DNA of 38,149 nt from Coleofasciculus chthonoplastes F2-STO-03 (lineage in GTDB: Bacteria; Cyanobacteriota; Cyanobacteriia; Cyanobacteriales; Coleofasciculaceae). The stretch lies in NCBI GenBank assembly GCA_040222015.1, contig JAVJWO010000065.1, forward strand, positions 1 to 38,149. The letters are read 5' to 3'. Within the stretch, counting starts at the first letter, position 1. Each line of letters starts with the position of its first letter. The position numbers were made by a program, and so were the translations under genes. The notes below the pieces were generated by a model that worked only from the letters and a program-made list of their open reading frames with translations, was not told the origin of the DNA and made no database searches. Shown piece by piece: positions 375 through 35,253 of this stretch.

Positions 375-1460
375 TTACCGACTGTTAGTTAACCCTATCG
401 CATTATCATCCACCCGATCTCTGACTTTTGGAAGAAGTTGGGACTCTAATATTTTATTTCCCTTCATTTCCTTTCCCTTCATTGCGCCAGATGCGGTGAA
501 AACGAAGAAACTTCCGATGGCGAGTAAGCCGAGTAGAGGAGACGGTTCCGGAACAGTAGCCGCCACCGCTGACTTAAATTCCGCTTGCGCTGCTGCAACT
601 GATTTTCCATAACCTTGGATGTATTCAAACGAAGCGGTGTCACCCGCCGCCAGAAGTACATTTTTTCCACCAATGTGTATACCAACATCGGCAAAGGTGC
701 CATTCGGATCAGAGGGATGATTCAGGAAACTGTTTAACTCCAACCCATTATGAATAGATAAACCCAGATCAGCACCAACGGTGGCTGTGGCGTCTAATGA
801 CCCTACAATAATCGTTAGACCTCCCAATTCGGTTGCTTGACCCACCGTGGCAAGTCCGGCGGCAGTTTCCAGTATAAATATATCATTAAATGTCTCGAAA
901 CCATGACGTTGATCAATGCCTTGGTCGGGATCAAACGTATCAAAATATCGAAGCTCAACGGCTGAACCCTGATTAACCAAATTAGTCTTAACCAGCAAAG
1001 CATTGAATTCATCCACCAGGGAATAGATGCGCCTAAAATCAACAGTCGCATCACCTCCTGTATAGGTACCTGTAACCACTACCGATTCACCATCTTGGGA
1101 AACGGTAACAGGCTGTTGCGTAATTCCTGCGGTTGTGTTGATGGTAAATGTAGCCGGATTCGCGCCATTCTGAAAGCCAAAATCAGAGACTGGCTCTCCG
1201 GGATTAAAGAAGTCGCTATGGAAGAAACTTTGTTTATCAAAGATAAGAGTATCAATCGCCCCGTTGTCATCCCTAATCGTTACCTCTAATGAAGAATTGC
1301 TGAGAGTAACCGCTGCAGATGATGAGGCGCAGCTAAGTCCTGCTAGGATTGTTCCCATTAAGGGTAGACATTTGGTGAAGAAGGGAGTCGAGAATTGGGT
1401 CATCCATTTTTTACAGGTATTCATGGGGTAAAACTTTCCTAGCCGAGTTCTTTTACTCAT
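375..1460 (-). CDS. PEP-CTERM sorting domain-containing secreted protein; true start probably downstream of 1460
   Basis: Signal-like segment (LMGTILAGLSCASSSAA), beta-rich acidic mature domain, and C-terminal VPEPSPLLGLLAIGSFFVF followed by basic residues. Confidence 0.75.
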   Translation of the reverse strand: MSKRTRLGKFYPMNTCKKWMTQFSTPFFTKCLPLMGTILAGLSCASSSAAVTLSNSSLEVTIRDDNGAIDTLIFDKQSFFHSDFFNPGEPVSDFGFQNGANPATFTINTTAGITQQPVTVSQDGESVVVTGTYTGGDATVDFRRIYSLVDEFNALLVKTNLVNQGSAVELRYFDTFDPDQGIDQRHGFETFNDIFILETAAGLATVGQATELGGLTIIVGSLDATATVGADLGLSIHNGLELNSFLNHPSDPNGTFADVGIHIGGKNVLLAAGDTASFEYIQGYGKSVAAAQAEFKSAVAATVPEPSPLLGLLAIGSFFVFTASGAMKGKEMKGNKILESQLLPKVRDRVDDNAIGLTNSR

Positions 1461-4253: not shown

Positions 4254-4325
4254 TTTGTCATTTGTCATTTGTCATTTGTCATTTGTCATTTGTTAGGGAA
4301 TGGGCAATAGGCAATAGGCAATAGA
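4254..4325. repeat. STRR heptamer arrays (TTTGTCA)n and (GGCAATA)n
   Basis: Tandem heptamers visible directly after the xfp stop codon. Confidence 0.9.
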
Positions 4326-5666: not shown

Positions 5667-5800
5667 TGTAGGGGCGCAAGGCTTGCGCCCTGCTATGAGT
5701 ATGTGACATACTCCTACACCGAATCAAAGATTTTAGAAATTAAGTACAGGTATGACGTGGGGCTTCCGGCTTTCGCTTGCTAACTGTGCCACGCCACTAG
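5667..5800. repeat. REP/MITE fragment with an IS200/IS605-like right-end remnant
   Basis: GTAGGGGCGCAAGGCTTGCGCCC hairpin. The end CTGTGCCACGCCACTA mirrors the element at 9901. TGACATACTCC...AATCAAAGATT...GTGGGGCTTCC resembles an IS605 terminal palindrome. Confidence 0.5.
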
Positions 5801-6768
5801 GATTGAGTTTTCATGATCCTGACAATCTCGCTGAGGGTTTGGGATACCGATCGCGGATTCCAGCCTAAGTCTTGACGCGCTTTGGTTGCATCGACGCGCA
5901 CGCAACGATCATAGACGTAATGAACCCGTTCCCGACTCAGGGGCGGTTGCCAATTCAACAGGCGTCCGATGGGGTCAAGGAGATTCCCCGCCAGTCTCAC
6001 CAAGGGTTTGGGGGCTTCAGCCGGAACCGGAATTCCGGTGTCTTGACTGAGAAGGGTGAACATCTCACGGGTGGAAAGATCACCCGCCGAAATGATATAT
6101 TTTTCTCCAGGTTGACCCTTTTGGGCTGCCAGAATCATGGCGTTAGCTAAGTCATCAACCTGGACAATTCCGGTAATGCGATCGCCTCCCGCCCATACCT
6201 TTAATCCACCTTTGAGAAATTGCTTGAGTACGGGACCAAAATGGGGGTCATCTGCACCAAAGATACCAGACGGGAGGATGCTAACAACGGGTAACCCTTG
6301 GGCGGCAAATTGGTCTACAATGTGTTGGGCTTGGTATTTAGTGCTGTCATAAGCCCCGGAAAAGTCGGTTTGCTGGCGTTGGAAGGTTTCATTCACCACT
6401 TGACCTTTGGTGTCGCCAAATACGCCAATAGTGCTACAGTAGACGAGTTTGGATACACCAACCGCTTCAGCCACCTCTAAAACAGCACGAGTTCCCTCAA
6501 CATTCACCCGTTCCATTTCTTTGGCATCGACGAGTCCTAATTCTACATAGGCGGCGGTGTGAAATACCCAGTCTACACCAGTCATTGCCGTTTTCAGGGC
6601 GTCGCGATCGCTAATATCGCCGTAAACCAGTTCGACTTGGCAATCCGAGAGACGCTGAAGGTTGCTAGACTTGCGGACGAAACCGACAACGGTATCCCCC
6701 CGTTGTTCTAAGGCTTTAACTAAATGAGAACCGGTAAATCCGTTGGCTCCGGTGACTAGGGCTTTCAT
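5797..6768 (-). CDS. NAD(P)-dependent epimerase/dehydratase (extended SDR, HpnA/DFR-like); candidate oxo-lipid (ceramide) reductase
   Basis: TGANGFTG Rossmann motif, HTAA, catalytic S (YCSTI) and YDSTK (YxxxK); GGAGG RBS upstream of ATG 6768. Confidence 0.88.
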   Translation of the reverse strand: MKALVTGANGFTGSHLVKALEQRGDTVVGFVRKSSNLQRLSDCQVELVYGDISDRDALKTAMTGVDWVFHTAAYVELGLVDAKEMERVNVEGTRAVLEVAEAVGVSKLVYCSTIGVFGDTKGQVVNETFQRQQTDFSGAYDSTKYQAQHIVDQFAAQGLPVVSILPSGIFGADDPHFGPVLKQFLKGGLKVWAGGDRITGIVQVDDLANAMILAAQKGQPGEKYIISAGDLSTREMFTLLSQDTGIPVPAEAPKPLVRLAGNLLDPIGRLLNWQPPLSRERVHYVYDRCVRVDATKARQDLGWNPRSVSQTLSEIVRIMKTQS

Positions 6769-6840
6769 CACACCTCCTGGCTTTTAACTAAAACTTAGGT
6801 TCAATGGTACTCACTTAAAAGGAATATCGCTGACTCGCAT

Positions 6841-6948
6841 AGCCAGGAAATAAATTTCTGGCTGAAAGCTAAAGTAAGCTGAAGCTTACTGGGGAAGCCT
6901 TTGAACCCGTTTAAACGGGTTCAATCCCGGACTTTGAACTCCGGGCGG
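6841..6948. repeat. Multi-hairpin palindromic repeat element
   Basis: Four adjacent palindromes: AGCCAG..CTGGCT, AGTAAGCT..AGCTTACT, AACCCGTTTAAACGGGTT and CCCGGA..TCCGGG. Confidence 0.7.
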
Positions 6949-6953
6949 ATTTT

Positions 6954-7610
6954 CTATTGATTTTGTAAAAGTTCTCGAATTCGTTGGCGAAACAACCGCA
7001 CGGCTGTTCGTTGTCCCTGGATATTACTTTGTTCAATAAAACCGGGAATCTCGGTTACAGGTAAAAATGGGAACGTCATGCTTTGTTGTCTCGGTTCATA
7101 TTCTCCTTCAACTAATTGATAAACCTGGAGAGTTTGACGAGTATATCTCCACAATTCCGGAACACCCAGAGCCGCATAAATGGATTGTTTATCAACAGAG
7201 GAACTGGTATAATCCGACTCAATCGCTAAATCAGGCGGTGGATCAATTTCCAGGTTGATTCGTCTGCCTCTGACTCGTGATTCATTTTGGATATAGAAAC
7301 AGCTATCCGGCTCAATAAAACGAGTTAAGTCTTCGCGCTTCAAGCTCAATGAACCAACTTTCTTAACTTCTATTTCTAGCTCATCGGCGACGGCTTCTAT
7401 AAAGCTTTCGAGCATCCCTTTCGGGACTTCATGGTCTTCCAGTGGCATTCTAATTTCTAATACTCCCTGAGAATAAGCCATTCTACAGGCTCGGTCTTCG
7501 CCAATTTCCGCCAGTAATGTCTTAAAGGTTTGCCAGCTAACGCCTTTTAAGGTAACGACTGGTTCAGCGCCCCTTTTCTGGGATTGAGGCGTTGGTGTTG
7601 CTGTTGTCAT
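6954..7610 (-). CDS. Uma2 family (DUF820) endonuclease, copy A
   Basis: VSWQTF, LEIRMP, EPDSCFY, PPDLAIESD and YAALGVPELWRY motifs. Confidence 0.93.
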   Translation of the reverse strand: MTTATPTPQSQKRGAEPVVTLKGVSWQTFKTLLAEIGEDRACRMAYSQGVLEIRMPLEDHEVPKGMLESFIEAVADELEIEVKKVGSLSLKREDLTRFIEPDSCFYIQNESRVRGRRINLEIDPPPDLAIESDYTSSSVDKQSIYAALGVPELWRYTRQTLQVYQLVEGEYEPRQQSMTFPFLPVTEIPGFIEQSNIQGQRTAVRLFRQRIRELLQNQ

Positions 7611-7695
7611 AGTGAACTGCCCTTGATACCTTGATTCAATTGTAGTCTTTGCTTACTTAGCATCGCTTCAAATTTTAAGCTGTGGAGGGATTATT

Positions 7696-8352
7696 CTATT
7701 GATTTTGTAAAAGTTCTCGAATTCGTTGGCGAAACAACCGCACGGCTGTTCGCTGTCCCTGGGTATTACTTTGTTCAATAAAGCCGGGAATCTCGGTTAC
7801 AGGTAAAAATGGAAATATCATGCTTTGTTCTCTCGGTTCATATTCTCCTTCAACTAATTGATAAACCTGGAGAGTTTGACGAGTATATCTCCACAATTCC
7901 GGAACACCCAGCGCCGCATAAATGGACTGTTTATCGACAGAGGAACTGGTATAATCTGACTCAATCGCTAAATCAGGCGGTGGGTCAATTTCTAGATTGA
8001 TTCGTCTGCCTCTGACTCGTGATTCATTTTGGATATAGAAACAGCTATCCGGCTCGATAAAACGAGTTAAATCGTCTCGCTTCAAGCTCAATGAACCTAG
8101 ACTTCTAAGTTCGATACCCAATTCATCAACTATAGCTGTCACAAAGTCTTCAAGCAGTCGTTTAGGTTCTTCATGGTCTTCCAGTGGCATCCTAATTTCT
8201 AATACTCCCTGATCATAAGCCATTCTACAGGCTCGGTCTTCACCAATTTCCGCCAGTAATGTCTTAAAGGTTTGCCAGCTAACGCCTTTTAAGGTAATGA
8301 CTGGTTCAGCGCTCCTTTTCTGGGATTGAGGCGTTGGTGTTGCTGTTGTCAT
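7696..8352 (-). CDS. Uma2 family endonuclease, copy B (tandem duplicate of A)
   Basis: Same motifs; near-identical DNA to copy A at a 742-bp period, including about 38 bp of upstream sequence. Confidence 0.93.
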   Translation of the reverse strand: MTTATPTPQSQKRSAEPVITLKGVSWQTFKTLLAEIGEDRACRMAYDQGVLEIRMPLEDHEEPKRLLEDFVTAIVDELGIELRSLGSLSLKRDDLTRFIEPDSCFYIQNESRVRGRRINLEIDPPPDLAIESDYTSSSVDKQSIYAALGVPELWRYTRQTLQVYQLVEGEYEPREQSMIFPFLPVTEIPGFIEQSNTQGQRTAVRLFRQRIRELLQNQ

Positions 8353-8465
8353 AGTGAACTGCCCTTGATACCTTGATTCAATTGTAGTCCCTGCCTAAGC
8401 TGGGCGTGACAATCATGTTGACCGAAGCATAAGTTAGAGGCTTGAGCAATAAAATAGAATACCAG

Positions 8466-8535
8466 GTAGGGTGGGTTAGGCGGTAATTCAATTCAAAAAA
8501 TCACCATTTAATTCGGTGTCCGCCGTAACCCACCA
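8466..8535. repeat. GTAG REP-like inverted pair
   Basis: GTAGGGTGGGTTAGGCGG ... CCGCCGTAACCCACC. Confidence 0.6.
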
Positions 8536-8615
8536 ATCACAAGAGTTGTAGTATATTAATGAACAATACTGTGGGGATTAGCGACAATTGATTTTCGCGA
8601 TCGCACACCTGTGAT

Positions 8616-9185
8616 TTACAAACGCTGTCCCAGTTTCAGCCAGGAGAATACCTGTTCAACGGTTAGCTGTAGACTGAGGAAATCGGGTACAGGTAGTCTA
8701 TCCTCTGGTTGTCGCATAATTTCTGGTAATTGATTGGGATAAAAACAGATTACGGCTTTCTCATCAGGATCAATCAACCACCCTAATCTGGTTTGATGTC
8801 TGAGACAGAATAAAATATTATCTGTCACCTTTGTTTGTGACTGGTCTGGTGAGAGGATTTCAATTGTCCAATCTGGAGAACATGCAAATACGTTTGCCAC
8901 TTCTCCATCAGCATCGAAGGGAATTCTTTCCCATTGAAATACGGCAACATCTGGCACAATAGAGCGTCCGCCAAACGTGCAGCGCAATTCTGGGAAAGCG
9001 TAAGCGATTTTTTCAGTAAATCCCACCTCGTTTACTGTATTTGCGAGGCATATTTGTAGAGTGCTGTGTTTCCCTTTTGGTATGGATTTTTGATAAATTT
9101 TACCGTCGATAAATTCGCTAGATGGTTTGGTTTCGGGAAGTTTTAGAAAGTCAGCTATGGTGAGTGGTTTAGTTTTTGTGGTCAT
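8616..9185 (-). CDS. Uma2 family endonuclease (different subfamily)
   Basis: LPETKP, PELRCTFGGRSIVPDVAVF, PDWTIEILSPDQ and LGWLIDP motifs. Confidence 0.93.
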   Translation of the reverse strand: MTTKTKPLTIADFLKLPETKPSSEFIDGKIYQKSIPKGKHSTLQICLANTVNEVGFTEKIAYAFPELRCTFGGRSIVPDVAVFQWERIPFDADGEVANVFACSPDWTIEILSPDQSQTKVTDNILFCLRHQTRLGWLIDPDEKAVICFYPNQLPEIMRQPEDRLPVPDFLSLQLTVEQVFSWLKLGQRL

Positions 9186-9246
9186 GGTTGCTTAACTGCC
9201 AAAAGAGCAATTTTTAGAATTTTTTTTTAAGTATCTTTTACTGAAA

Positions 9247-9867
9247 TTATCCACATGAGTACAGAGGATTTAACGCTTCCCCTTCTGGTAATAAGTATCT
9301 AAAATCTAAGCCACGGACTAATAAGCGATTAATCAGCTCTTTTGCTGTTTGACGAGTCTGTTCATCTTTACTTTTAAGGACTGCGGACAAAATAGCGCGG
9401 TACTCTTCGTGATGATAAGAAGCTAACCAATACTGACCTGAATTGGTTTGAGCCATAGTCATCAAGCTTAAACATTTTATTATCGCCAGTGGCATCGACT
9501 CAGCAAGGTCAAGAAAATGCTTGAGCAAATCTAAATCGTCCTCTATAATTACTGATTTGTCAAGAACCTTGACTAATTGATTAATCGCCCAGCTATCATC
9601 GAACTTTCTCGAAACAAACCACCAGCTAAAGTATTTTAGCTCGTCTACTACAACTTCAATAAAACTCTCTAGCAGTCGTTTAGGTTCTTCGTGTTTGGGT
9701 AGTGGCATTCGGATTTCTAATATTCCCTGGTCATAGGCTATCCTCCAAGCCCGATTATCTCCTACATCGTGCATTAAAGCTTGATACGTTTGCCAACTAA
9801 CCCCTCTGAGTGTAACGATTGGTTCAGCGCGAACTTGCAGTTGTTCTGTCGTTGATGTTGTTGTCAC
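9247..9867 (-). pseudogene. Chimeric ORF: first 77 aa of a Uma2 protein fused in frame to an unrelated helical C-terminal fragment
   Basis: Uma2 similarity ends at VVDEL (about 9637), before the catalytic PD/E motifs. The remainder (FSWWFVSRKFDDSW...LINRLLVRG) is AT-richer and not Uma2-like. Confidence 0.7.
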
Positions 9868-9900
9868 CGTCTAACCCACCATTATTAACTGTTTTAATTG

Positions 9901-10023
9901 TAGTGGCGTGGCACATCTAATTTGATGAATTAATCTGACGCCCGGAAACTGTAGGGGCGCAAAGACTTGCGCCCCATTCAATGGTCAAATCTAATCCATG
10001 ATTTTAGCTGTGTCAGTCCAGTA
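9901..10023. mobile_element. MITE-like element with an internal REP hairpin
   Basis: Imperfect terminal inverted repeats TAGTGGCGTGGCACATCTAA / TTAGCTGTGTCAGTCCAGTA enclosing GTAGGGGCGCAAAGACTTGCGCCCC. Confidence 0.6.
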
Positions 10024-10157
10024 GTAGCGTGATATACTTCATTTGATAGATTAACCTTGTATTTAATAGCGGTCATGGTGCGTTACGCTACGCTAACACA
10101 CCCTACAAATAAAGGCTGTGCGTAAGTCCTAAGTCAGACAAATTAGGCTGATACTGA

Positions 10158-11291
10158 CTACAGCGTTTTTTCATAAATTCGATATGTCTTATAAATTGTT
10201 CCTCCCGATGCTTCAATCAACTTACGAGACGGAAAATTATCTTCCCATACCCAACCTAACTCTGCCCGTTTGTAGGGCTTACCCTTCTTAATTCCCCCTT
10301 GCATTCCCAAATAAATTAACGCCAACGGCACCATTTTACGGCGATATTCCGGCAATGAAGCAATTGCAATTACCCGTCCTTGGTAAATCTGGCGACGATA
10401 CCAAAGAAACTTGAGAATTCCCAGCCAGTTGAGTTTCCCGTTAACGTGTTTTAGGGGAATATTATAGTCCGGTAATCCCATAAAAAAGCCGATCATTTCA
10501 CCCTTGTCTTCGGCAATGGGAAAAACATCGGGATCGACTAACGTCTGTAGTGATTTGGCTTCTTCTAGAAATTCTGCTTCCGTTCTCGGCGCAGAACTCC
10601 AATTATTGGCAAAGGCACGGTTAAAAAGGTGATAAAGACTGATACAATCTTGTTCAAATCCTTGCCCTTTGGTTCTAATCGGGCGAAACGTTATACCCGA
10701 TTTACAGGCAATCTGATAGGCTTTCTTGAACTTATCCGATAAGGGCTTATCGAGGGGAAAATCATAAGCATAAGTATCCTTGGCTTTCTGCCAACCCTCT
10801 TTTTCCAGAAATTCGGGATAGTAGGGGGGATTATAGGGCATCATCACCATGGGCGGTGTATCAAAGCCATCGACCAAAAATAAACAATTATTGTGGGTTG
10901 ATAAATCAATGGGTCCCCGCGCCACCGTCATTCCTTGTTCCCGCAACCACTGACAAGCCGCATTTAGGAGAGATTGCGCGATCGCGCAATCTTGGACACA
11001 TTCAAAAAACCCAATTAAACCAACCGTTTTCCCCTCTCGTTCAATTAACCGTTGGTTCACCGCCGCCACAATTCGCCCCACCGCTTGGGAAGGGTGAGAC
11101 GAGTCGAGGGCAATAAATTGCTGTAATTTGCCGTAGCCAAAAAAGGGATTATCGGGGGCAAACTGCTTCGCTACATCGCTACGCAGCGGCGATATCCAAT
11201 TGGGGTCATTGCCATAGACTCGTGCAGGTACATCCAGAAACAAGTCCTGGTCGGCTGGAGTGGCTACAGTGCGAATTTTGTCATTTGTCAT
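10158..11291 (-). CDS. GNAT-fold acyl-CoA/ACP N-acyltransferase, bacterial ceramide synthase (bCerS)/YghO-like
   Basis: Family signature VGRIVA..GFFECV..WLREQG...RGP....LVDGFDTPPMVMMPYNPPYY..KAKD, MGLPDYN, and C-terminal ELGWVWEDN..YKTYRIYEK. Confidence 0.8.
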   Translation of the reverse strand: MTNDKIRTVATPADQDLFLDVPARVYGNDPNWISPLRSDVAKQFAPDNPFFGYGKLQQFIALDSSHPSQAVGRIVAAVNQRLIEREGKTVGLIGFFECVQDCAIAQSLLNAACQWLREQGMTVARGPIDLSTHNNCLFLVDGFDTPPMVMMPYNPPYYPEFLEKEGWQKAKDTYAYDFPLDKPLSDKFKKAYQIACKSGITFRPIRTKGQGFEQDCISLYHLFNRAFANNWSSAPRTEAEFLEEAKSLQTLVDPDVFPIAEDKGEMIGFFMGLPDYNIPLKHVNGKLNWLGILKFLWYRRQIYQGRVIAIASLPEYRRKMVPLALIYLGMQGGIKKGKPYKRAELGWVWEDNFPSRKLIEASGGTIYKTYRIYEKTL

Positions 11292-11310
11292 TTGTCATTT
11301 GTCATTTGTC
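11277..11310. repeat. STRR (TTTGTCA)n overlapping the acyltransferase start
   Basis: The heptamer array supplies the ATG and the MTNDK N-terminus on the minus strand. Confidence 0.85.
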
Positions 11311-11341
11311 GTTGATCAAATAACCAATAACCCAGGACAAG

Positions 11342-12622
11342 TTAGGCGCTGATCATGGGTTTATATAAAAAATCCCGTGTTGTTACCATGGCGGCGACTA
11401 ATTTATCCATTTCCTCCTTCGTATGCAGAGCATTTGCCGTCATCCGGATACGGGGTTTGGCAATAAACCAAATGGGTGATACCCAAATCCCATGATTCTC
11501 TAACATATACTGACCAAACAATTTCGGATTAATTTCTGAGGGTAAAATAACCGGGATAACGTTAGTTTCACCAATGGCATCAAATCCGGCTTCGACTAAG
11601 CGCGATCGCAAGTAGCGAGTATTTGCCTGAAGCTTCTTCACCATGTCGGGATGACGGCGCACCTGACGAATGCTCTCCAAGGCGGCGGCTGCTAGAGGTG
11701 GTGACAAGGAAACCGTACCAATCGACGTGGGCGAAACATTTAATAAGGGAATCAATTCTGGCAGAGGACTGCTAATTGCCGCCCCTGCTGATGCGGCAAA
11801 CTTGGAGAATGTGGTCATAATCAGCGGCACAACACCTTGCTCCATGGTGTATTGGGGTAGGATACCAAAATGCTCGTAGATGCCGCCACCTGTCGCCCCA
11901 ATCGCCCCACTAGCATGAGCTTCATCCATCACCAAGACACTACCTTCGTAATGTCGCAGCACCTCGATCATATCGGGGAGGGGAGCAATATCCCCATCCA
12001 TGGAGAACACTGCATCAGAAATCACCATAATTCGATCTTGGGGACGAGCATAGCGACGCAGTTTCCGCGATAAGTCCTCTACATCACAGTGGCGATAGGC
12101 TCTCACCCGCACACGCGGACTATGACCAAATAACTTTCCAGAACGAGTTCCCGCGTTGACGACGGCTGAGAGAATACAGCCATGGTTGAGGACATCAGTC
12201 AAAATTAATGTCTCACGGGTATGCTGAAAGCCAGGAACGGGAATAGCCAAATGGCAGAACGCATCCATTAGGGCTTGCATCGCCATCCACGCATTCAAAA
12301 AGAGTTGGGTATGGGGTAGGTGCTTAAACTCCGAAATCTCTTGCTCGAGCTGCCGATGCAAATCGATGCGACCACTCAGGACTGAGGTTGAACTGTTAGA
12401 CGTACCGTATTGAAAAATAGCATCAACCGCTGCTTGGCGAACCGCCTCGTTCTGAACCAGACCCAAGACATCATTCGTACAGAACGTGAGAACCGTCTGA
12501 CGCTTTCCTGAGGCGACTGATTCTATCTCGACTAAATTCCCCTGCTTTTGATGGCAAACATATTCGTCGGGCGCTAATCCACTTTCGTACCACCGCTGGA
12601 CGTACTCTTTGACAACTTCCAC
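11342..12622 (-). CDS. PLP-dependent alpha-oxoamine synthase, serine palmitoyltransferase-like (aminotransferase class I/II)
   Basis: ND.LGL, LNHGCI, YRHCD, SDAVFSMDGD, DEAHASG, PLP lysine in TTFSK, and C-terminal RIR; GTG start with AGGAG upstream. Confidence 0.88.
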   Translation of the reverse strand: MEVVKEYVQRWYESGLAPDEYVCHQKQGNLVEIESVASGKRQTVLTFCTNDVLGLVQNEAVRQAAVDAIFQYGTSNSSTSVLSGRIDLHRQLEQEISEFKHLPHTQLFLNAWMAMQALMDAFCHLAIPVPGFQHTRETLILTDVLNHGCILSAVVNAGTRSGKLFGHSPRVRVRAYRHCDVEDLSRKLRRYARPQDRIMVISDAVFSMDGDIAPLPDMIEVLRHYEGSVLVMDEAHASGAIGATGGGIYEHFGILPQYTMEQGVVPLIMTTFSKFAASAGAAISSPLPELIPLLNVSPTSIGTVSLSPPLAAAALESIRQVRRHPDMVKKLQANTRYLRSRLVEAGFDAIGETNVIPVILPSEINPKLFGQYMLENHGIWVSPIWFIAKPRIRMTANALHTKEEMDKLVAAMVTTRDFLYKPMISA

Positions 12623-18089: not shown

Positions 18090-18252
18090 TGTCATTTGTC
18101 ATTTGTCATTTGTCCTTTGTTCTATCCTGTGGCAAATTGTGTCTCTGTTGTCATTCGTTCAGAGTTAGTTCACTTGATAACGAATGACTAATGACTAATG
18201 ACGAATAACCAATGACCAATGACCAATGACCAATGACTAATGACTAATGACT
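18090..18252. repeat. Opposed STRR arrays (TCATTTG)n and (AATGACY)n between ndhF1 and ndhD1
   Basis: Directly visible; the second array contains the ndhD1 ATG. Confidence 0.9.
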
Positions 18253-19931: not shown

Positions 19932-20019
19932 AGTTTATTAGCTTACAACTTGCTTGTTGTAAGCTAATATTAAGGGTAAATTGTTTTTGTATTTCATAAG
20001 AACTGATACCAGGTGGGCA

Positions 20020-23000
20020 ATGAGTAGCCGACGGCAGGTTCGCAAAAGAGCATCCTTGGAGCCTAAAACCACTCCAGTCAATCCGTTGCGAACCCGGGGG
20101 TTCGGCAAAGGCATCCAGGCAAGAAATGCCCAGCTACCTCATGGCAATCCGTTACAGACACGTCCCTTTGGCGCTCAGAAGCCAGGGTTATCCCAAAATC
20201 AGGAAACCCATTCTCTTCAAGAACAACAAGAACAAAAGGAAGGGGCAGAGCAATTTGGTTATAATGCGGCGAATATCCCAGCTTATGCACCGGAAAGATC
20301 CCAGTTACCGATTCAGACGAAAGTAGGGCAGTTTGGCGGGTGGAATCCATCACCGATTCAGAGAGTCGATCCGGTAAAGAATCGGTTGAATTTGTGGCGG
20401 GAGCAGCAACTCGGTCAAGGGAAGACAGAAGAACCTGAAGATGTTTCTGAGCGAGAAGAGCAGGAGACGCCACCAGAAGCGGCGGTAGTACAACGATTAC
20501 AGGAATCAGACACACAACCGATTTCAGATCGGGAGATTCAACCGCAGGAAATTGCTGAACCTGGAGACAAAGAGACGCCAACTCCACCACCAAAGGCAGA
20601 GACAATTCAACCGAAATCTGTCAGTATTGCCAAAACCATTTCTCCTCAGACGAAGGCGCAGCTAAGGCGAAAGCTATTTCCAGAATCCCAGGATGAAACT
20701 GAGAAAATTCCTGAGTTTTCCACTATTGTTGACCGTGAGCAGCAATCCTCATCGGTTGTTGAGAATCCTAAAACGCCTTTAGCCAAGGCAAAGCAATTCG
20801 CGAACTTACCCGCCAAGGTAGGCAGGGATAAAAAACCGCTCACATCGCTGAAAACGAATAGACCTGCTTCCTTACCGCAGACATTTAAACCCAGTGAAGC
20901 GGATCAATCAATAGAACCTGGTGATACTGCCGAAGCCAAGGGGGTTCCCTCGAGTTCCAACAAAAGCCTGCTACCAGATGCTGGGAGAGTTCCTCATCCT
21001 CAACCCTCTGCAGCGAAGGAAGCTGGTGCAGATTTAGCCGTTTCTGAGCAACCCTCAGACAAGTCACAACCAGAAGCGGTGGCTATGGAGACAGGAACCC
21101 TACCCTCAACAGAAGGTAATCCTGAGAGCGATCAGACGACACTAACCGAAGTCGCCACAGAAAGCCCAACCTCAGCACCCTCAACCAAAGCTGATACCCC
21201 AACTCCACAGCCTGGGGCAAATCCGCAAAAATCGGGACAAGAGGCTGCTCCGAAATCAGCCGTTCAACCTGATGCAGATTCAGTCCAATCTCCTGAGACG
21301 AAGACAAATATTGTTGCCGCTCCCGCAGCCGCTATCAGTAGTCCAGCCGCAGCCGGAGGCGTTGGTGGAGCAGGCGCCGCCGGGGGAGCCAGTGCAGGTG
21401 GGGGTGACGTTGAAGCCGCAACGGTTGATGAAGAGGCTGAAGCCAATGCCATGGAGGAACGATTGGCTGAAGTGGCTCCAGAAACAGAGACCGAAAGTAA
21501 CCAGCTCTCATCCGCTGAAAAAGACGTGGCTCTCGCCGCCCTAGCAGAAGAACCCGCTACAGGCAGTCTCCCGGCTGGAGGCGGTGGAGGCGGTGGTGCG
21601 ATCGCGGAATCTGCACCTCCCCCAGCACCCCCTGATGTTTCCCAAGCTGATCCTGCGGCTGCCCTCGGTGCGGTGAGTGGCTTGCCTCCTGCCCAATTGG
21701 TATCCGCGTTAGGGGGTGTTACCGCAGCCGTTTCTAATGATGTTGGCAAACAAAAATCTGAACTCGCCGCCAATCCGCCTAGCGCCGATACGTTACCAGG
21801 AACCGGAAAATCGGCGGTAGTGAAAGCCAACTCAGGCGGCGACAAACCTAAACCCGTTGCCAAAAAAGCTGAGGGTCAAGAAAAACCCGTCCCCGAACCC
21901 AAACCCCTACCCCCAGAAAAAGCCCCGCCCCAGGTATCTGCACCAGCACCAGCCGTGCAGGGGAATGAAGAAGGCAAACTGTCAGATGCTGATATCAGCA
22001 ACATGAAGGCATCAGTGACGCGATTGCCCGTGAGTGATCCAGGGGCGAATCAAGTGTCTGCTGGACCCCCACCGAAACTGGCGCTGGAGGGCAATGCTGA
22101 TCCGCAAAAAGCCCAGGAACAGCGGGCTGAATTGGAAACCAGCTTAACGGAAGCCCAAGCTAAAGGGCAGCAAGAACTGGCTAAACCCACGGGCGTAGAG
22201 GCTATTCAACCAACCCTACCCAAAAAATCCCTGAAAGCGCAGATTACGGGAGGCGCTGGTGGGCGAGCCGCAGCCGCTGCTGCTGGGGCTGGAACTGCCC
22301 TGGCAACTGGAGCCGGGGGAGATGGTATGGGAGATGCCGCGTCTATCTTCGCTCAACAAGAGAAAGGGGGCGAAATTCAAGCCGCTGCTGCTCAAGCGCA
22401 AAGTGATTTAGCCGCGAAGAAACAAGACCATGCCACTAAGGTGGCAGAAGAACAAGCCACTGCCAAGCAAGAGGTTGAACAACTCAAACAAGATAATATC
22501 GCCCAACAAGCCCAAGAGCGGACAAAGGCAAAGGGCGAAGTGGCTGAGTTACAAGGTCAATGGAGCAAAGAACAGGATGATTTAGTCAGCCAGTCGCGCC
22601 AAGAGGGCGACAAACTGGTGGGTGAAGGGCTGCAAGAGGTAGAGACGAAACAGGCAGAAGGGGATGCCGAAGCTGTCAAGGAAATAGAAAAAGGCGAAAC
22701 GGAGGCAGAAGCCGAGCGTCAGAAGGGTGAAGCAAAGGCGGCTGAGGAGAATCAGAAAGGGGAAGAAGAGTCAAGTGGGTTATTTGGTTGGTTAGCAAGC
22801 AAGGCAAAAGCCTTCTTTGACGGGATTAAGAAAGCGATTCAGAAAGCCTTTGAAGCGGCTCGTGCGGCGATGCGAAAAGCGATTGAATCCGCTAAAAAGC
22901 TGGCAACGGCTGCGATTGAAAAGGCACGCCAAGGGATTGTGGCTGTCATCCGCCGGGTGGGAGATGCATTGATTGCTTTAGGCGATACTCTTCTGGCAAA

Positions 23001-25068
23001 ATGGCCCGGATTACGAGATAAATGGCGTAGCGCGATCGCGAAAAAAGTTCAGCAGACAGAAGATGCGGTTAATCAGCTAGCCGAAAACCTGAATCAGGGA
23101 ATTCAGAAAGCTTTGGATGTTTTAGGTGGCGCCCTAGATGCCGCCCTAGGTTTGCTTGAGAAAGGGATGTTAGTTGTCGTCAGCGTCTACAAAGGCGTTG
23201 TCATGGGGGCGATTAAGTTGGGTGAAGGGATTGCCAAAGCCTTGGGCGCTTTTGCGGTGTTGGCGAAGGATATTGCCGCCAACCCTGGACAATGGATTAG
23301 TAATTTAGGGGCGGCAGTATCTGATGGTATCCGCAATCACCTCTGGAGTGCCTTCAAAGAACAGGTACAAATCTGGTTCAATCAAAAGTTAGAGGCAGTT
23401 CTCGGTTTAGGTGCAGCCGTTTGGAAGATCTTGACCCAAGGCGGTATCGCCATGGCAGAAGTGGGTAAGATGGCTTGGACTGCGGTTAAGCAGGCGTTAC
23501 CGACGATTATTATTGGTGTTTTGCTGGAGCGCCTCGTCTCAATGATTGTGCCTGCGGCTGGGGCAGTATTGGCGATTATCCAGGGATTACAGGCGGCTTG
23601 GGGCACGGTTAGCCAGATTATTCAAGCCTTTGGACGCTTCATCGAGTTCTTGAAGGCGATCAAGACAGGGGCAGCAGGTCCTCAGTTTGGGGCATTGTTG
23701 GCTTCAGCCGCGATCGTCTTGCTGGACTTTATTACTAATTTCATCATTGTCAAGATTGCTAAGGCTGCCCGGAAGGTGGCAGGTAAGCTGAAGGGCTTGG
23801 CGAAGAGCTTGATGAAGCGGTTTAAGGGGAAGAAAGGGAAGAAAGGCAAGAAGACAAAAGATAAAACGATAAAAGCCAAGAAGAAGGACGAACGCAAAGA
23901 CAGCAAGAAGCAAGCAAAGTTGGAAAAAGCAGTATCTGCAATTAAGCCCAAAGCAGCCAAATTACTTAAAAGTGGCACAAGTAACTTCTACTTAAAGGGA
24001 AAGCTTTTATTTTGGAAAGTCCGTTACGGTTTATCATCCTTAACAATGGATCAAAGTGGCAACATAAAAGCCACCGTCAATCCATCAACTATTTTAGACA
24101 ATCCTAAAGGTAAGAAAGTATCAGATTCGGAATTGGGCAAGCTCCTGATGCCAATATTTGCTAGGGCAGAGAAGGAGTACGAGCAAAGCTTGTTAATAAG
24201 GAATCTGAGAGATAGACAAGAAGTTGAGGAAGCTTCACAAAGGTGGGAGGAAGGCGAACCTGGATCTTTAGGAGGACTATCAAGATTTCAACAACAGATG
24301 ATAATTAGAGACGTTCAGGCTCCGACAGGAAAACGCGAAGTTGAACCTAGTGTACAAATATTTACACCAAATCTTTCGTCTAAAGGGAAAGTAGAAAGTC
24401 TTGGTAAATATAAAGAAATACTAAGAAGCTTCACAAAAAAAGCAAAAAAATACGGAGCTGATGAAAGAGATTTAGCAAGTATTTTAACGAGCAAAACTAG
24501 CACTATAGAGCCAAAGTTGAAGCAATTTGAAACAGGACTAGAAATAATCAATACCAATCCAAAAACAAAACGCCTAACAAAAACACTAAGGAAAGAGATC
24601 ACAGTTTTCTTAAATGAACTACGTCGAATAGCCTTTTTGACACAAGCATTCGAGCCTGCTCGAATACCTGGAATTGCGACAGCTACCGCTGTATCTTCTA
24701 CTTTGCTTTCGCAAGGTATGGTGAAACCAGAACAGTTAATTAGCCCTGAAGGAAACATGGCTCCCATGACGCCTGTTGGAGCAGCACCTGAAAGTGGAAA
24801 ACCTGAATCCTCTGAGCAGAAGAGAGCTGAAAAATTACGATATCGTCGTGTTGGTCGAATATTTGGAAACCTTCTTGATGCGGCTAAAACAACACCTATC
24901 ATCGTCGCTGAAGGCAATTATGATCTTCATGACCTAGCATTGGCAGTAAGAATGTGGCTAGAGGAAAGAAAAAGAAAAATGCCTAATCCTGAGGATCTTG
25001 CTGCCGCTGAGACATTACTGAAAGCAGAAATCAAGAAGATGTTGTTGTCTTATCATGGAAAGAGATAG
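20020..25068 (+). CDS. Large polymorphic-toxin-like protein (about 1,680 aa): disordered N-terminus, coiled-coil, amphipathic/hydrophobic helices, Lys-rich linker, divergent C-terminal domain
   Basis: Uninterrupted ORF, with ATG 20020 preferred. N-terminal NPL.TR.FG repeats and IQTK/IQR/VVQR motifs like those of eCIS-associated DUF4157 proteins; composition shifts to AT-rich after about 23900. Confidence 0.7.
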   Translation: MSSRRQVRKRASLEPKTTPVNPLRTRGFGKGIQARNAQLPHGNPLQTRPFGAQKPGLSQNQETHSLQEQQEQKEGAEQFGYNAANIPAYAPERSQLPIQTKVGQFGGWNPSPIQRVDPVKNRLNLWREQQLGQGKTEEPEDVSEREEQETPPEAAVVQRLQESDTQPISDREIQPQEIAEPGDKETPTPPPKAETIQPKSVSIAKTISPQTKAQLRRKLFPESQDETEKIPEFSTIVDREQQSSSVVENPKTPLAKAKQFANLPAKVGRDKKPLTSLKTNRPASLPQTFKPSEADQSIEPGDTAEAKGVPSSSNKSLLPDAGRVPHPQPSAAKEAGADLAVSEQPSDKSQPEAVAMETGTLPSTEGNPESDQTTLTEVATESPTSAPSTKADTPTPQPGANPQKSGQEAAPKSAVQPDADSVQSPETKTNIVAAPAAAISSPAAAGGVGGAGAAGGASAGGGDVEAATVDEEAEANAMEERLAEVAPETETESNQLSSAEKDVALAALAEEPATGSLPAGGGGGGGAIAESAPPPAPPDVSQADPAAALGAVSGLPPAQLVSALGGVTAAVSNDVGKQKSELAANPPSADTLPGTGKSAVVKANSGGDKPKPVAKKAEGQEKPVPEPKPLPPEKAPPQVSAPAPAVQGNEEGKLSDADISNMKASVTRLPVSDPGANQVSAGPPPKLALEGNADPQKAQEQRAELETSLTEAQAKGQQELAKPTGVEAIQPTLPKKSLKAQITGGAGGRAAAAAAGAGTALATGAGGDGMGDAASIFAQQEKGGEIQAAAAQAQSDLAAKKQDHATKVAEEQATAKQEVEQLKQDNIAQQAQERTKAKGEVAELQGQWSKEQDDLVSQSRQEGDKLVGEGLQEVETKQAEGDAEAVKEIEKGETEAEAERQKGEAKAAEENQKGEEESSGLFGWLASKAKAFFDGIKKAIQKAFEAARAAMRKAIESAKKLATAAIEKARQGIVAVIRRVGDALIALGDTLLAKWPGLRDKWRSAIAKKVQQTEDAVNQLAENLNQGIQKALDVLGGALDAALGLLEKGMLVVVSVYKGVVMGAIKLGEGIAKALGAFAVLAKDIAANPGQWISNLGAAVSDGIRNHLWSAFKEQVQIWFNQKLEAVLGLGAAVWKILTQGGIAMAEVGKMAWTAVKQALPTIIIGVLLERLVSMIVPAAGAVLAIIQGLQAAWGTVSQIIQAFGRFIEFLKAIKTGAAGPQFGALLASAAIVLLDFITNFIIVKIAKAARKVAGKLKGLAKSLMKRFKGKKGKKGKKTKDKTIKAKKKDERKDSKKQAKLEKAVSAIKPKAAKLLKSGTSNFYLKGKLLFWKVRYGLSSLTMDQSGNIKATVNPSTILDNPKGKKVSDSELGKLLMPIFARAEKEYEQSLLIRNLRDRQEVEEASQRWEEGEPGSLGGLSRFQQQMIIRDVQAPTGKREVEPSVQIFTPNLSSKGKVESLGKYKEILRSFTKKAKKYGADERDLASILTSKTSTIEPKLKQFETGLEIINTNPKTKRLTKTLRKEITVFLNELRRIAFLTQAFEPARIPGIATATAVSSTLLSQGMVKPEQLISPEGNMAPMTPVGAAPESGKPESSEQKRAEKLRYRRVGRIFGNLLDAAKTTPIIVAEGNYDLHDLALAVRMWLEERKRKMPNPEDLAAAETLLKAEIKKMLLSYHGKR

Positions 25069-25070
25069 AT

Positions 25071-25652
25071 ATGAGCCGACAGTATTATGTTTTAGAAACT
25101 GACCCAAGTGAATTATCTTTTCTTGATACTATGCAAGATGCACTTGACCTTATAGAAGAACAATATGGAACAAAGTTTAGTTATGCTTTTTATGAAAAGG
25201 GTGGTGAAGGACTGGGAAGACACGTTTACGTAGAAGAACACAAGCAAGCAATTATTAGCTTAGCTGTAAATTTTGCTATTCCTACATACTATCTAATTGT
25301 TGAGGCTGCTACACAAGAAAAGCTAGAACTTATCAGTAGTTTGCTAAATGATATTTTATTTTTTGTGCCACTTGAAACTCTTCAAAAAAATGCTCGGAAT
25401 CAAATGTATTACAATCCGCAGTCTCTAGTTAAAATGGCACTCGGCACTGGCAATAATTCTGATTCGGAGTCTTTGGAAATCTTGTTATCAGCATTAAGAA
25501 ATCAAGACCCTCTTGTGAGATTCAGAGCTGTGGAAGCCGCCAGCTTAACTGGATGGTCAGAATTCACGCCGTTGCTTGAATTTATGAGTCAAAGCGATGA
25601 GAGCAGTGAAGTACGAGAGATGGCGAGTCAAGCACTCAAAACTTGCCGATAG
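25071..25652 (+). CDS. HEAT-repeat protein, candidate immunity protein
   Basis: Starts 2 nt after the large ORF's stop; C-terminal HEAT motifs (ALRNQDPLVRFRAVEA, DESSEVREMASQAL); AT-rich. Confidence 0.75.
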   Translation: MSRQYYVLETDPSELSFLDTMQDALDLIEEQYGTKFSYAFYEKGGEGLGRHVYVEEHKQAIISLAVNFAIPTYYLIVEAATQEKLELISSLLNDILFFVPLETLQKNARNQMYYNPQSLVKMALGTGNNSDSESLEILLSALRNQDPLVRFRAVEAASLTGWSEFTPLLEFMSQSDESSEVREMASQALKTCR

Positions 25653-25678: not shown

Positions 25679-26437
25679 ATGCAAAATCCTCCCTCCGAAG
25701 AAGAACTCCAACAAACCCTTCGCAACTACCTGGAAAACTGGGCGAAGGAAAACCTGCCTGACTTTAACGAACTCAGCGAAGATACCTCGACTGAAACCCT
25801 TGAGGAAATCACCAAATCCCTTGAGCAACTAGCAGATACTGAATTTGAAGCCATCACTCAAGACGCCACTGGCGAATTCATTGATGCTATCGAAGCTACT
25901 TTTCAAGACTGGGCAAAAACGGCTCGCGAGGAACTTGATCCCGACGGTGCGGGGAACCAACTCATTTACAAAGCCATGCTCAACTTCTTTGAAGCTGACG
26001 ATTGGCCCCTCGTTGAAGACGAAGATGAACCCATCCTATACATGAACTTCCAGGGTGAAAATGGTCAATGGCACTGCCTTGCTAAGGCGAGAGAAAAAGA
26101 AGACCAATGTGTATTTTACTCCCTTTATCCTGAAGCTGTTCCCGAAGATAAACGCTCAACCCTTACCGAATTCCTCACCCGTGCCAACTATGGCATGATT
26201 CTCGGCAATTTTGAGCTCGATTTCGACGATGGTGAAATTCGCTATAAAACTAGCATAGATGTTGAGGGAGATAGGCTCACCCCTACCCTAGTGCAAAATC
26301 TCGTCTACACCAATGTCATGACAATGGATCAATACCTCCCCGGTATTCTGGCTATCCTAGAACAAAATCTAACAGCTAAAGATGCGCTTGATCTGGTTGA
26401 GAAACAACTCGAAACCAATGAACAACCATCGTCATAA
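25679..26437 (+). CDS. YbjN-domain protein (T3SS chaperone-like fold) with acidic N-terminus
   Basis: FQGENGQW, VFYS, EFLTRANYGMILGNFELDFDDGEIRYKTSIDV motifs. Confidence 0.88.
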   Translation: MQNPPSEEELQQTLRNYLENWAKENLPDFNELSEDTSTETLEEITKSLEQLADTEFEAITQDATGEFIDAIEATFQDWAKTAREELDPDGAGNQLIYKAMLNFFEADDWPLVEDEDEPILYMNFQGENGQWHCLAKAREKEDQCVFYSLYPEAVPEDKRSTLTEFLTRANYGMILGNFELDFDDGEIRYKTSIDVEGDRLTPTLVQNLVYTNVMTMDQYLPGILAILEQNLTAKDALDLVEKQLETNEQPSS

Positions 26438-35112: not shown

Positions 35113-35253
35113 AGTAGGTTGGTGGAAATAAACTTAACTGGATTAAGTTATGTAAACAAGTCTCAAACCCTTACTGTTCCCTGTTCCCTGTTCCCTGTTC
35201 CCTGTTCCCTGTTCCCTAATCTCTACCGCTAACTTTAATTGTGTCCACCTACT
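35113..35253. mobile_element. MITE-like element carrying a (CTGTTCC)n STRR array
   Basis: Imperfect terminal inverted repeats AGTAGGTTGGTGGAAATAAA / TTTAATTGTGTCCACCTACT; about six heptamers at 35174-35217. Confidence 0.65.

Follow-up and report, generated by a model that had tools for sequence, protein, structure and literature searches.

A co-inherited synthase, N-acyltransferase and SDR trio as the candidate core of a ceramide-type lipid pathway in Coleofasciculus and other cyanobacteria

The window analyzed here, i.e., the whole stretch of 38,149 nucleotides from Coleofasciculus chthonoplastes F2-STO-03 (contig JAVJWO010000065.1), carries three co-oriented enzyme genes on the minus strand, encoding an alpha-oxoamine synthase, a tandem-GNAT N-acyltransferase and an extended SDR, all of them present where an earlier note on this DNA had placed them (Table 1). 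The GNAT gene starts 50 bp downstream of the synthase end, while an in-frame GTG at 6771 would add one residue at the 5' end of the SDR gene.

Table 1. Features of the locus, with positions in the window
Feature	Position	Strand	Remarks
Alpha-oxoamine synthase, divergent	11342-12622	minus	426 aa, GTG start, PF00155
Tandem heptamer repeat, short, 4.9 copies	11277-11310	.	partly fills the 50-bp synthase-GNAT gap; overlaps the GNAT start
YghO/bCerS-family tandem-GNAT N-acyltransferase	10158-11291	minus	377 aa
Chimeric remnant ORF	9247-9867	minus	206 aa; Uma2-like N-terminus and tail of a Dsr1-like gene; in variable insert
Uma2-family putative endonuclease	8616-9185	minus	PF05685; insert, outside the pathway
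Uma2-family gene, copy 1 of 742-bp tandem duplication	7696-8352	minus	within insert
Uma2-family gene, copy 2 of 742-bp tandem duplication	6954-7610	minus	within insert
Extended SDR, HpnA-like	5797-6768	minus	323 aa, ATG start; PF01370 and PF01073

The GNAT and SDR genes are separated by 3386 bp, said in the earlier note to hold only Uma2 genes and small repeats. Three Uma2 genes were indeed found there, but the fourth ORF is not a plain Uma2 gene: its residues 1-77 are Uma2-like, and residues 74-206 share 85% identity with the end of a 1105-aa, weakly Dsr1-like ORF that occupies the same position in the close relative L001. The tandem Uma2 copies are identical at 655 of 742 nucleotides and 198 of 218 amino acids. 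This duplicated gene is found as one copy only in L001-L003, and contigs from four mat sequencing runs omit copy 2 (joint 6921 to 7694). The type of the unduplicated Uma2 gene was seen in five of the best 80 of 226 matching loci.

Across a sample of 301 Cyanobacteriota genomes, the orthologs of synthase, GNAT and SDR displayed an identical profile, being found in the same 25 genomes, which represent 13 families; the synthase was present in 43 of the 48 genomes of the family to which this organism belongs (including one unpublished genome, G305). Gene order was compared in the best 80 of 226 matches, the nearest loci, which are not independent because they are related to each other. Among these best 80 of 226, 44 have synthase and GNAT side by side, the SDR adjoins the GNAT in 23 of the 29 loci that hold all three genes, and an uninterrupted synthase-GNAT-SDR triple occurs in 18, so that the direct adjacency sought in other cyanobacteria exists. 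The association of the trio exceeds chance. Since its members are found together in the same genomes and uninterrupted in those 18 loci, the Uma2 block represents a variable insertion, unrelated to the pathway discussed below, and the idea of one unit split by this block was borne out.

The synthase displays the features of its family, namely a fold-type I PLP enzyme with the stacking His, Asp-x-x-His, the Schiff-base Lys and a C-terminal Arg. Its PLP-binding and catalytic residues have been retained (N50, H147, S207, D233, H236, T271, S273, K274 and R393), these nine positions being invariant in all 77 full-length orthologs, and the catalytic residues of S. multivorum SPT (PMC10196870, PMC6148460) align with invariant residues of the synthase. 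The AlphaFold model (pLDDT 95) had SPT 3a2b as its top VIA match (Z 48.1, rmsd 1.8, 378 aligned), with Kbl and ThAOS structures within 1 Z unit of it; the fold is also common to CqsA- and Alb29-type synthases. The label "SPT-like" given in the earlier note was not supported in that form. The synthase scored 169, 162 and 119 bits against the three NCBIfam SPT models (cut-offs 640, 500 and 670, which are strict, the Caulobacter and Bacteroides controls also falling under the alpha-proteobacterial one) and stayed below the cut-off of every NCBIfam model, the best score being that of bioF, TIGR00858 (228 bits, cut-off 426). In two quick trees, in which E. coli Spt was the sole experimentally tied Spt and from which CapB/SulA were left out, it formed its own long-branched clade outside the 7-row Spt clade (SH-aLRT 98-99). 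In this phylogeny, which had been proposed as a check, AU tests rejected neither sisterhood with Spt (p 0.499) nor with BioF (p 0.41). Its identity with E. coli Spt is 28%, and the best match of E. coli Spt in this genome is a BioF-like gene rather than the window synthase. The synthase orthologs carry the JGI label glycine C-acetyltransferase.

All four canonical Spt pocket motifs (GSR loop, T-G-F/Y-x-A/S-N, His-Ala-Ser and proline-rich loop) are altered in the window synthase, and these changes are almost invariant among the 77 orthologs. Relative to S. multivorum SPT, Gly80, Arg82 and Phe83 are replaced by Ser78, Ser80 and Val81, Gly113-Phe114 by Ala111-Trp112 and His-Ala-Ser by His-Gly-Cys, and a four-residue loop is deleted; the N-terminal aromatic wall of the acyl pocket is apparently replaced by Asp19-Glu20, in a region of uncertain alignment. 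The substrate-pocket loops of the window synthase are thus remodelled. The enzyme is unlikely to be BioF, since a second alpha-oxoamine synthase is present in all 25 carrier genomes and this genome has its own BioF-like gene (contig C165, 61406-62635), which groups with BioF in both trees. Additionally, no bio genes were found among the recurrent neighbours of the synthase, and the arginine with which BioF binds the pimeloyl carboxylate aligns with an invariant Pro18.

The assignment of the GNAT to the bCerS/YghO family was upheld, with E. coli BL21 YghO, a named homolog of Caulobacter bCerS CC_1154, standing in for the latter as the reference (PMC9386255). The two proteins share 30% identity over the full length (388 columns, E 3e-54), and the window GNAT is the sole match of YghO in this genome. 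The family motifs named in the earlier note lie at residues 94, 125, 142 and 151, and motifs common to the GNAT and family members were seen in a 13-row alignment; identity with the GNATs in Spt-type clusters of Rubrobacter, Streptomyces, Diaphorobacter and Aureispira is 28-34%. The model (pLDDT 89) has the tandem GNAT fold and the length of about 380 aa expected of the family. The best-matching structures are tandem GNATs (Z 21-23), 7q3a among them (Z 23.3, rmsd 3.7, 305 aligned), and a bCerS structure is absent among the structure matches listed. Some YghO homologs have no adjacent synthase.

The SDR has the traits expected of a CerR-type enzyme, being an extended SDR with the catalytic Ser and YxxxK, linked to synthase and GNAT genes; its glycine-rich dinucleotide motif, Ser and YxxxK lie at residues 6, 111 and 140. 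Its naming as CerR, however, could not be sustained: it shares 22% identity with the E. coli CerR homolog ECD_02852 (E 2e-11) and fails the reciprocal-best test against CC_1164/ECD_02852, the best match of ECD_02852 in this genome being another SDR, encoded on C193. CerR is located in the periplasm (PMC11087976); the window SDR starts directly with the Rossmann strand. The protein is instead HpnA-like, scoring 212 bits against TIGR03466 (cut-off 368), followed by SdmB (152 bits, also below cut-off). An identity as HpnA itself is not supported, given this score and the absence of a squalene-hopene cyclase match in this genome and in 12 of the 25 carriers.

The trio forms part of a larger lipid cluster in related genomes, a cluster that had been missed in the earlier note and comprises a Rieske oxygenase, a fatty-acid hydroxylase, a GH3 ligase, an Mpo1-like protein and an amidohydrolase; in this genome the same accessory genes are scattered. 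When 25 carrier genomes were compared with 55 non-carriers, none of the non-carriers had an ortholog of the Rieske oxygenase (19/25 carriers), GH3 ligase (21/25), amidohydrolase (20/25) or Mpo1-like protein (20/25), nor the hydroxylase at >=67% identity (i.e., at least 67%; 24/25), although a hydroxylase homolog at 56-59% was found in 4/55. Neighbour families include FA_hydroxylase, Mpo1-like, GH3 (best NCBIfam OlsH), an OlsC-like 2-hydroxylase, a desaturase and a DevC-like permease. Within the best 80 of 226 loci, the Rieske oxygenase was found in 61, an MFS transporter in 39, the GH3 ligase in 23, DevA/DevC genes in 13-14 and a B12 radical SAM gene with DUF4070 in 7. The best NCBIfam match of the Rieske protein is a 4beta-methylsterol monooxygenase model (232 bits, below cut-off), and the closest solved relatives of the amidohydrolase are hydrolases and decarboxylases. 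Of the 40 families most often encountered as neighbours, none is a dedicated ACP or acyl-ACP synthetase family.

On the basis of gene content, homology, linkage and co-inheritance, the trio is probably the core of a cyanobacterial pathway to a ceramide-type lipid, an N-acylated long-chain amino alcohol. In a first step, deduced from the synthase family, the PLP enzyme would condense an amino acid with a fatty acyl thioester, probably acyl-ACP, releasing CO2 and yielding a 2-amino-3-ketone. The tandem GNAT, by homology to YghO/bCerS, would then place a second acyl chain on the amine of this ketone, and the SDR, judging from its family and linkage, would reduce the 3-ketone; the accessory genes probably serve to hydroxylate the lipid, to export it and to recycle it. 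Because the synthase pocket differs from that of the serine-using Spt, the long-chain base may come from serine, to which roughly half of the weight of this reading is given, or may come from another amino acid such as alanine or glycine (1-deoxy-type). A more elaborate version is tentative: a sizeable group of mat-, crust- and rock-dwelling cyanobacteria might make an undescribed ceramide analogue through a new synthase subfamily acting on a non-serine amino acid, bCerS-family N-acylation, an independently recruited SDR, Rieske and di-iron oxidation and DevAC-type export. If so, sphingolipid-like lipids would have one more biosynthetic route in addition to those of Spt and the cysteate enzymes, a route overlooked by Spt-based surveys, and its product would be a possible biomarker for such cyanobacteria.

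The same chemistry could instead use an acyl donor that is short or polar and lead to a small N-acyl amino alcohol or amino ketone that is exported to serve as a signal, surfactant or sheath component, rather than to a membrane sphingolipid. The remodelled acyl-pocket wall and deleted loop of the synthase, together with the fold common to CqsA- and Alb29-type synthases, would suit such a product, and the MFS, DevA/DevC, Rieske and GH3 neighbours make the locus resemble a natural-product cluster. This alternative is nevertheless unlikely, considering that the characterised member of the GNAT's family acylates long-chain bases, that the hydroxylase, desaturase, OlsC-like and Mpo1-like neighbours are long-chain lipid enzymes by family, and that a single-copy trio highly conserved across 13 families better fits a housekeeping lipid. 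It is improbable that the cluster mainly degrades or remodels sphingolipids from neighbouring organisms, with the trio re-acylating or interconverting salvaged bases: the Mpo1-like protein and the amidohydrolase, with its hydrolase and decarboxylase relatives, do track the trio, but each is missing in 5/25 carriers, whereas the three genes of the trio always occur together, and the decarboxylative condensation of the alpha-oxoamine synthase family is a biosynthetic step. Tailoring of hopanoids or sterols by the SDR and the Rieske oxygenase (HpnA- and SdmA/SdmB-like), with synthase and GNAT attaching an N-acyl group to such a lipid, draws on the sub-cut-off HpnA, SdmB and methylsterol scores and the B12 radical SAM gene, but is largely refuted by the distribution of squalene-hopene cyclase, for which no match was found here (genome 99.99% complete) or in 12/25 carriers, against matches in 31/55 non-carriers; six carriers that retain the SDR also had no Rieske ortholog found. 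Just as implausible is a second BioF or Kbl beside an unrelated SDR, for which the top bioF score, the AU result and the JGI label speak, against the additional synthase in every carrier, the Pro18 replacement and an SDR syntenic and co-inherited with synthase and GNAT.

The closest known system to the proposed ceramide-type pathway is the Spt-bCerS-CerR route, encoded by CC_1162/CC_1154/CC_1164 in Caulobacter and spt/yghO/ECD_02852 in E. coli BL21 (PMC9386255, PMC11087976). The same three enzyme types are present (PLP oxoamine synthase, YghO-family N-acyltransferase and extended SDR), whereas the synthase falls outside the Spt clade, the SDR is distant from CerR, the window-type cluster has no acpR or aasR, and the accessory genes are Rieske, GH3, Mpo1-like and DevAC rather than LptF/G. 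The order and strand of the cyanobacterial trio recur in operons known from annotated plasmid records of Rubrobacter radiotolerans (NZ_CP007515.1) and Streptomyces sp. NBC_01001 (NZ_CP108712.1), whose GNATs share 32-34% identity with the window GNAT; the window SDR is this genome's best match for the Streptomyces SDR (29%). Unlike the window synthase, their synthases have canonical pocket motifs and lie within the Spt clade with E. coli Spt. A separate SPT-related branch that forms a long-chain base from a non-serine amino acid has a precedent in the CapB/SulA cysteate fatty acyltransferases, in which the pocket positions altered here shape the side-chain site (PMC13692747). Their sequence match to the window synthase is weak (E 1.9e-26 and 1.4e-28; Z 44.4), and no cysteate synthase was found among the recurrent neighbours of the trio. 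Cyanobacterial BioF (Npun_R3567 and the C165 gene) shares the fold and catalytic lysine at 32-34% identity, but is near-universal, about 390-409 aa long and canonical in its motifs, the window enzyme being an additional, 426-aa paralog.

The single genetic and lipidomic study found, on Nostoc, was negative, as indicated in the earlier note, Npun_R3567 giving no 3-ketosphinganine in E. coli, and it urged testing other cyanobacterial oxoamine synthases (PMC8895605). This outcome is explained by the strain's sole synthase being the BioF-type Npun_R3567. The trio matters because no genes for ceramide-like lipids in cyanobacteria were identified in the literature searched; it points to the genes, and to the type of strain, with which the question of cyanobacterial sphingolipids can be addressed. 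A published survey used thresholds of E 1e-70 for Spt and 1e-30 for CerR (PMC11334938), and the weaker pairwise values of the window proteins against the E. coli genes, about 1e-38 and 2e-11, respectively, suggest that such surveys would miss the module. Coleofasciculus and many lineages of soil crusts are among the carriers, so that a specific lipid might be relevant to the tolerance of desiccation or salt and to biomarkers of mats. The new synthase subfamily is also a candidate biocatalyst. Ceramides have been isolated from Scytonema and Moorea, as cited in PMC8895605. The Moorea material was field-collected (PMC6272925), and associated organisms could be the source in such reports; two Scytonema-labelled records (L038 and L049) carry a window-type synthase.

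The synthase, GNAT and SDR genes constitute one unit. Among 301 evenly drawn Cyanobacteriota genomes, orthologs of all three were found in exactly the same 25 genomes from 13 families; the synthase orthologs shared at least 72% identity, with next matches at no more than 37%, the GNAT orthologs at least 57%, with matches of 25-35% in 23 further genomes, and the SDR orthologs at least 62%, with no other match at E 1e-50. As the 301 include many small genomes from distant families, this share of 8% understates that among filamentous forms. Named records with the module include Allocoleopsis franciscana, Mastigocladopsis repens and Chroococcidiopsis sp. The window's own family carried the synthase in 43 of 48 genomes (one of them, G305, unpublished) and in 21 of 21 genera, with one genus being patchy (2/7), and in the largest family of the same order the module occurred in only one of 37 genomes. 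Additionally, direct synthase-GNAT-SDR adjacency in other cyanobacteria, which the earlier note had proposed looking for, was verified: among the best 80 of 226 matching loci, which include kin, are hence non-independent and are counted without a p-value, and 64 of which have at least 2.6 kb downstream, 52 contain the GNAT, which lies directly next to the synthase in 44; 29 hold the full trio, and in 18 the triple is uninterrupted. The GNAT and SDR were adjacent in 23 of these loci (abutting in 12), which contradicts the possibility that the SDR is never syntenic with the other two genes, and in rearranged Nostoc clusters (L027, L030 and L032) both were still found together. The feature is real and widespread; an ESM Atlas search added only a 127-member cyanobacterial cluster.

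Coordinates of the trio and of further features in the window and in two related loci
Feature	Sequence	Position	Strand	Remark
Synthase	window	11342-12622	-	
GNAT	window	10158-11291	-	
SDR	window	5797-6768	-	
361-aa ORF	window	375-1460	-	no Pfam, NCBIfam or PADLOC match
Heptamer tandem repeats	window	4254-4293, 11277-11310, 18090-18252, 35174-35217		one overlaps the GNAT start
1695-aa ORF	window	19981-25068	+	no Pfam or PADLOC match
HEAT-repeat gene	window	25071-25652		
YbjN-family gene	window	25679-26437		
306-bp in-frame repeat	window	37088-38145		3.5 copies, 91% matches, runs off contig end
1105-aa ORF	L001	10863-14180	+	between GNAT and Uma2; PADLOC Dsr1 match, residues 169-1087, E 2e-40
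Sphingolipid cluster, apparently complete	L115 (NZ_CP065408.1)	44626-65744		Diaphorobacter conjugative IncP plasmid

As contig C65, the window belongs to a 7.7 Mb, 99.99% complete genome, and its synthase is 95-99% identical to Coleofasciculus MAG proteins. The trio is flanked by xfp-ackA on one side and by a LysR-NnrU-thioredoxin-ndh block on the other. The earlier description of the three ORFs, with their strand, the 50-bp gap and the GNAT motifs, was confirmed. The accompanying claim that only Uma2 genes and small repeats separate the GNAT from the SDR stood in part: the 3386-bp gap does contain three Uma2 genes, two of which form a 742-bp tandem duplication, but it also holds a chimeric remnant, in which a Uma2-like start is joined to the tail of the 1105-aa Dsr1-like ORF present in the related locus L001. 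Only the last 133 codons of that ORF are retained in the window. Since its content varies among L001-L005, the gap is a site of variable insertions. Elsewhere in this genome, Uma2 genes are also frequent (15-25 tblastn matches per query), and heptamer tandem repeats, which are typical of filamentous cyanobacteria, occur at four sites of the window. Four contig sets labelled as metatranscriptome cover all three genes; their flat depth and the contigs running across the divergent synthase-LysR gap indicate that they probably contain DNA, and neither transcription nor an operon can be deduced from them. Scanning for promoters and terminators yielded numbers about as expected by chance (12 vs 12.0; 9 vs 7.4).

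The names bCerS and CerR were reportedly defined by Stankeviciute et al. in 2022. The reference sequences used in place of those from Caulobacter and Bacteroides came from E. coli BL21 and plasmid-borne clusters. The GNAT, for which no NCBIfam or PDB sequence match was found, can be aligned over its whole length with YghO of E. coli BL21 (30% identity) and is the only match of YghO in the window's genome, which bears out its proposed assignment, by sequence, to the bCerS/YghO family. In the accessible parts of the sources, yghO/ECD_02850 is listed as homologous to CC_1154 of Caulobacter, whose dihydroceramide synthesis depends on five genes including this one (PMC9386255), and the acyltransferase is called bCerS (PMC11087976). 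Plasmid-borne homologs of the GNAT (28-34%) were found beside or near oxoamine synthases in Rubrobacter, Streptomyces, Diaphorobacter and Aureispira, and two others were not so placed. The predicted structure is a tandem GNAT, and the protein would be expected to act as an N-acyltransferase. A different YghO/bCerS-like GNAT (29-35%) was observed in five genomes from other classes of the phylum (L110-L114, in G046, G043, G079, G025 and G061), in some cases within long, possibly fused open frames. The plasmid cluster L115 comprises a synthase, an ACP, an acyl-AMP ligase, a bCerS-like GNAT, LptF/G, a desaturase and phosphotransferases.

The trio probably leads to a ceramide-type lipid, with about half of this probability falling on a serine-derived one. 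Within the best 80 of the 226 loci, the recurrent neighbours were a Rieske oxygenase (61), MFS (39), FA_hydroxylase (28), a GH3 ligase (23), an amidohydrolase and an Mpo1-like protein (20 each), DevA and DevC (14 and 13), a B12 radical SAM protein (7), an OlsC-like hydroxylase (6), a cupin (5) and a desaturase (4); orthologs of the first eight are located on contigs C10, C171, C106, C138, C67 and C130 of the window's genome. When the 25 genomes carrying the trio were compared with 55 of the 111 non-carriers of the same order or class, orthologs of the Rieske (19/25), GH3 (21/25), hydroxylase (24/25), amidohydrolase (20/25) and Mpo1-like (20/25) genes were found in carriers and in 0/55 non-carriers, four non-carriers having a hydroxylase homolog of 56-59%. 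The carriers G014, G141, G017, G080 and G285 have the cluster-type GH3 ligase in two or three copies. The nearest named GH3 is OlsH, which is described, in the part of the source available, as amidating fatty acids with ornithine (PMC12493201). That the product is a small exported amide is rather unlikely. Mpo1 breaks down 2-hydroxy fatty acids derived from phytosphingosine, and the Pfam name of the Mpo1-like neighbour agrees with such a role. A salvage function of the cluster is improbable.

For a ceramide-type product, the SDR would perform the obvious missing step, the reduction of the ketone. It has the dinucleotide motif, the Ser and the YxxxK, and is tied to the pathway by its strict co-inheritance with the synthase and GNAT. 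Its earlier identification as CerR fails at the level of orthology, since it is only 22% identical to ECD_02852, the E. coli BL21 homolog of CerR, whose best match in this genome is another gene. The SDR of a Streptomyces operon has the window SDR as its best match here (29%). The closest relatives of the window SDR are HpnA-like proteins; a hopanoid pathway is nevertheless rejected as highly improbable, because no squalene-hopene cyclase was found in the window's genome or in 12 of the 25 carriers.

The view of the synthase as SPT-like was not supported in the form stated. The protein lies below every NCBIfam cut-off and outside the Spt rows in both quick trees, which carry SH-aLRT support only and one of which was reduced to 38 of 82 rows for run time. 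The synthase and its distant relatives share a long-branched clade (SH-aLRT 100), distinct from the rows of Spt, BioF, Kbl and HemA, and AU tests rejected sisterhood neither for Spt (p 0.50) nor for BioF (p 0.41). The best structural match of its model is SPT 3a2b, with Kbl and ThAOS tied within Z 1, so that structure does not separate these enzymes. That the synthase is itself BioF is very unlikely, and this reading was rejected, since all 25 carriers hold a second synthase and that of the window's genome, on contig C165, falls among BioF rows. The catalytic set listed for S. multivorum SPT in the accessible text of PMC10196870 (Asn52, His138, Ser185, Thr241, Ser243, Lys244) is kept as N50, H147, S207, T271, S273 and K274, which, together with D233, H236 and R393, are invariant in 77/77 full-length orthologs (three partial loci excluded). 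In the pocket, Gly80 of that SPT is replaced by Ser78 in 76/77 orthologs, and the changes of Arg82 to Ser80, Phe83 to Val81 and Gly113-Phe114 to Ala111-Trp112 are conserved, as are a four-residue deletion before R393 and the replacement by His-Gly-Cys of His-Ala-Ser, a motif called strictly conserved in the portion available of PMC6148460. Such conserved pocket-loop changes suggest specialisation rather than decay, and a separate synthase branch using cysteate, not serine, provides a precedent (PMC13692747, available in part). Only about ten full or near-full sequences among 1.84 billion representatives exceed 37% identity to the synthase; rare distant members of its subfamily (P0241-P0250, 37-62%) include one from a Pseudomonadota MAG. 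A metagenome scan for non-cyanobacterial members yielded at least two subfamily loci, both in cyanobacterial-type clusters, and 0/32 matches in viral contigs (25-30% identity) belong to the subfamily.

Compared with the Spt-bCerS-CerR pathway, whose logic is already known, the module would work alike in logic, although its synthase falls outside the Spt clade in the trees and its SDR, as far as sequence indicates, is not a CerR ortholog; membership of that pathway's families has been borne out by testing only for the middle enzyme, the GNAT. The negative Nostoc lipidomics mentioned in the earlier note is real: as far as the accessible text of PMC8895605 goes, no sphingolipids were found in N. 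punctiforme, its only synthase is the BioF-like Npun_R3567 (394 aa), Scytonema julianum and Moorea producens are cited as sources of ceramides, and testing of other synthases is called for. Npun_R3567 is probably orthologous to the C165 gene. In our homolog searches, none of the named matches was from Moorea, and the source of the Moorea cerebroside is given as hand-collected material in the available part of PMC6272925. Lipidomics of N. flagelliforme lists ceramides, but gangliosides and PC too, and was not counted as support (PMC9222375). No description of this cluster was found in the literature searched, with subscription papers and some supplements largely outside it. The module makes the question whether cyanobacteria produce sphingolipids directly testable.

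Elsewhere in the window, the N-terminus of the 1695-aa ORF is long, of low complexity and rich in Pro/Ala/Glu, its middle is helical and hydrophobic and its C-terminal part is basic; the ORF is followed by the HEAT-repeat and then the YbjN-family gene, giving the impression of a polymorphic-toxin-like gene with immunity neighbours. The 306-bp repeat region probably encodes a large surface protein built from repeats of 102 aa.
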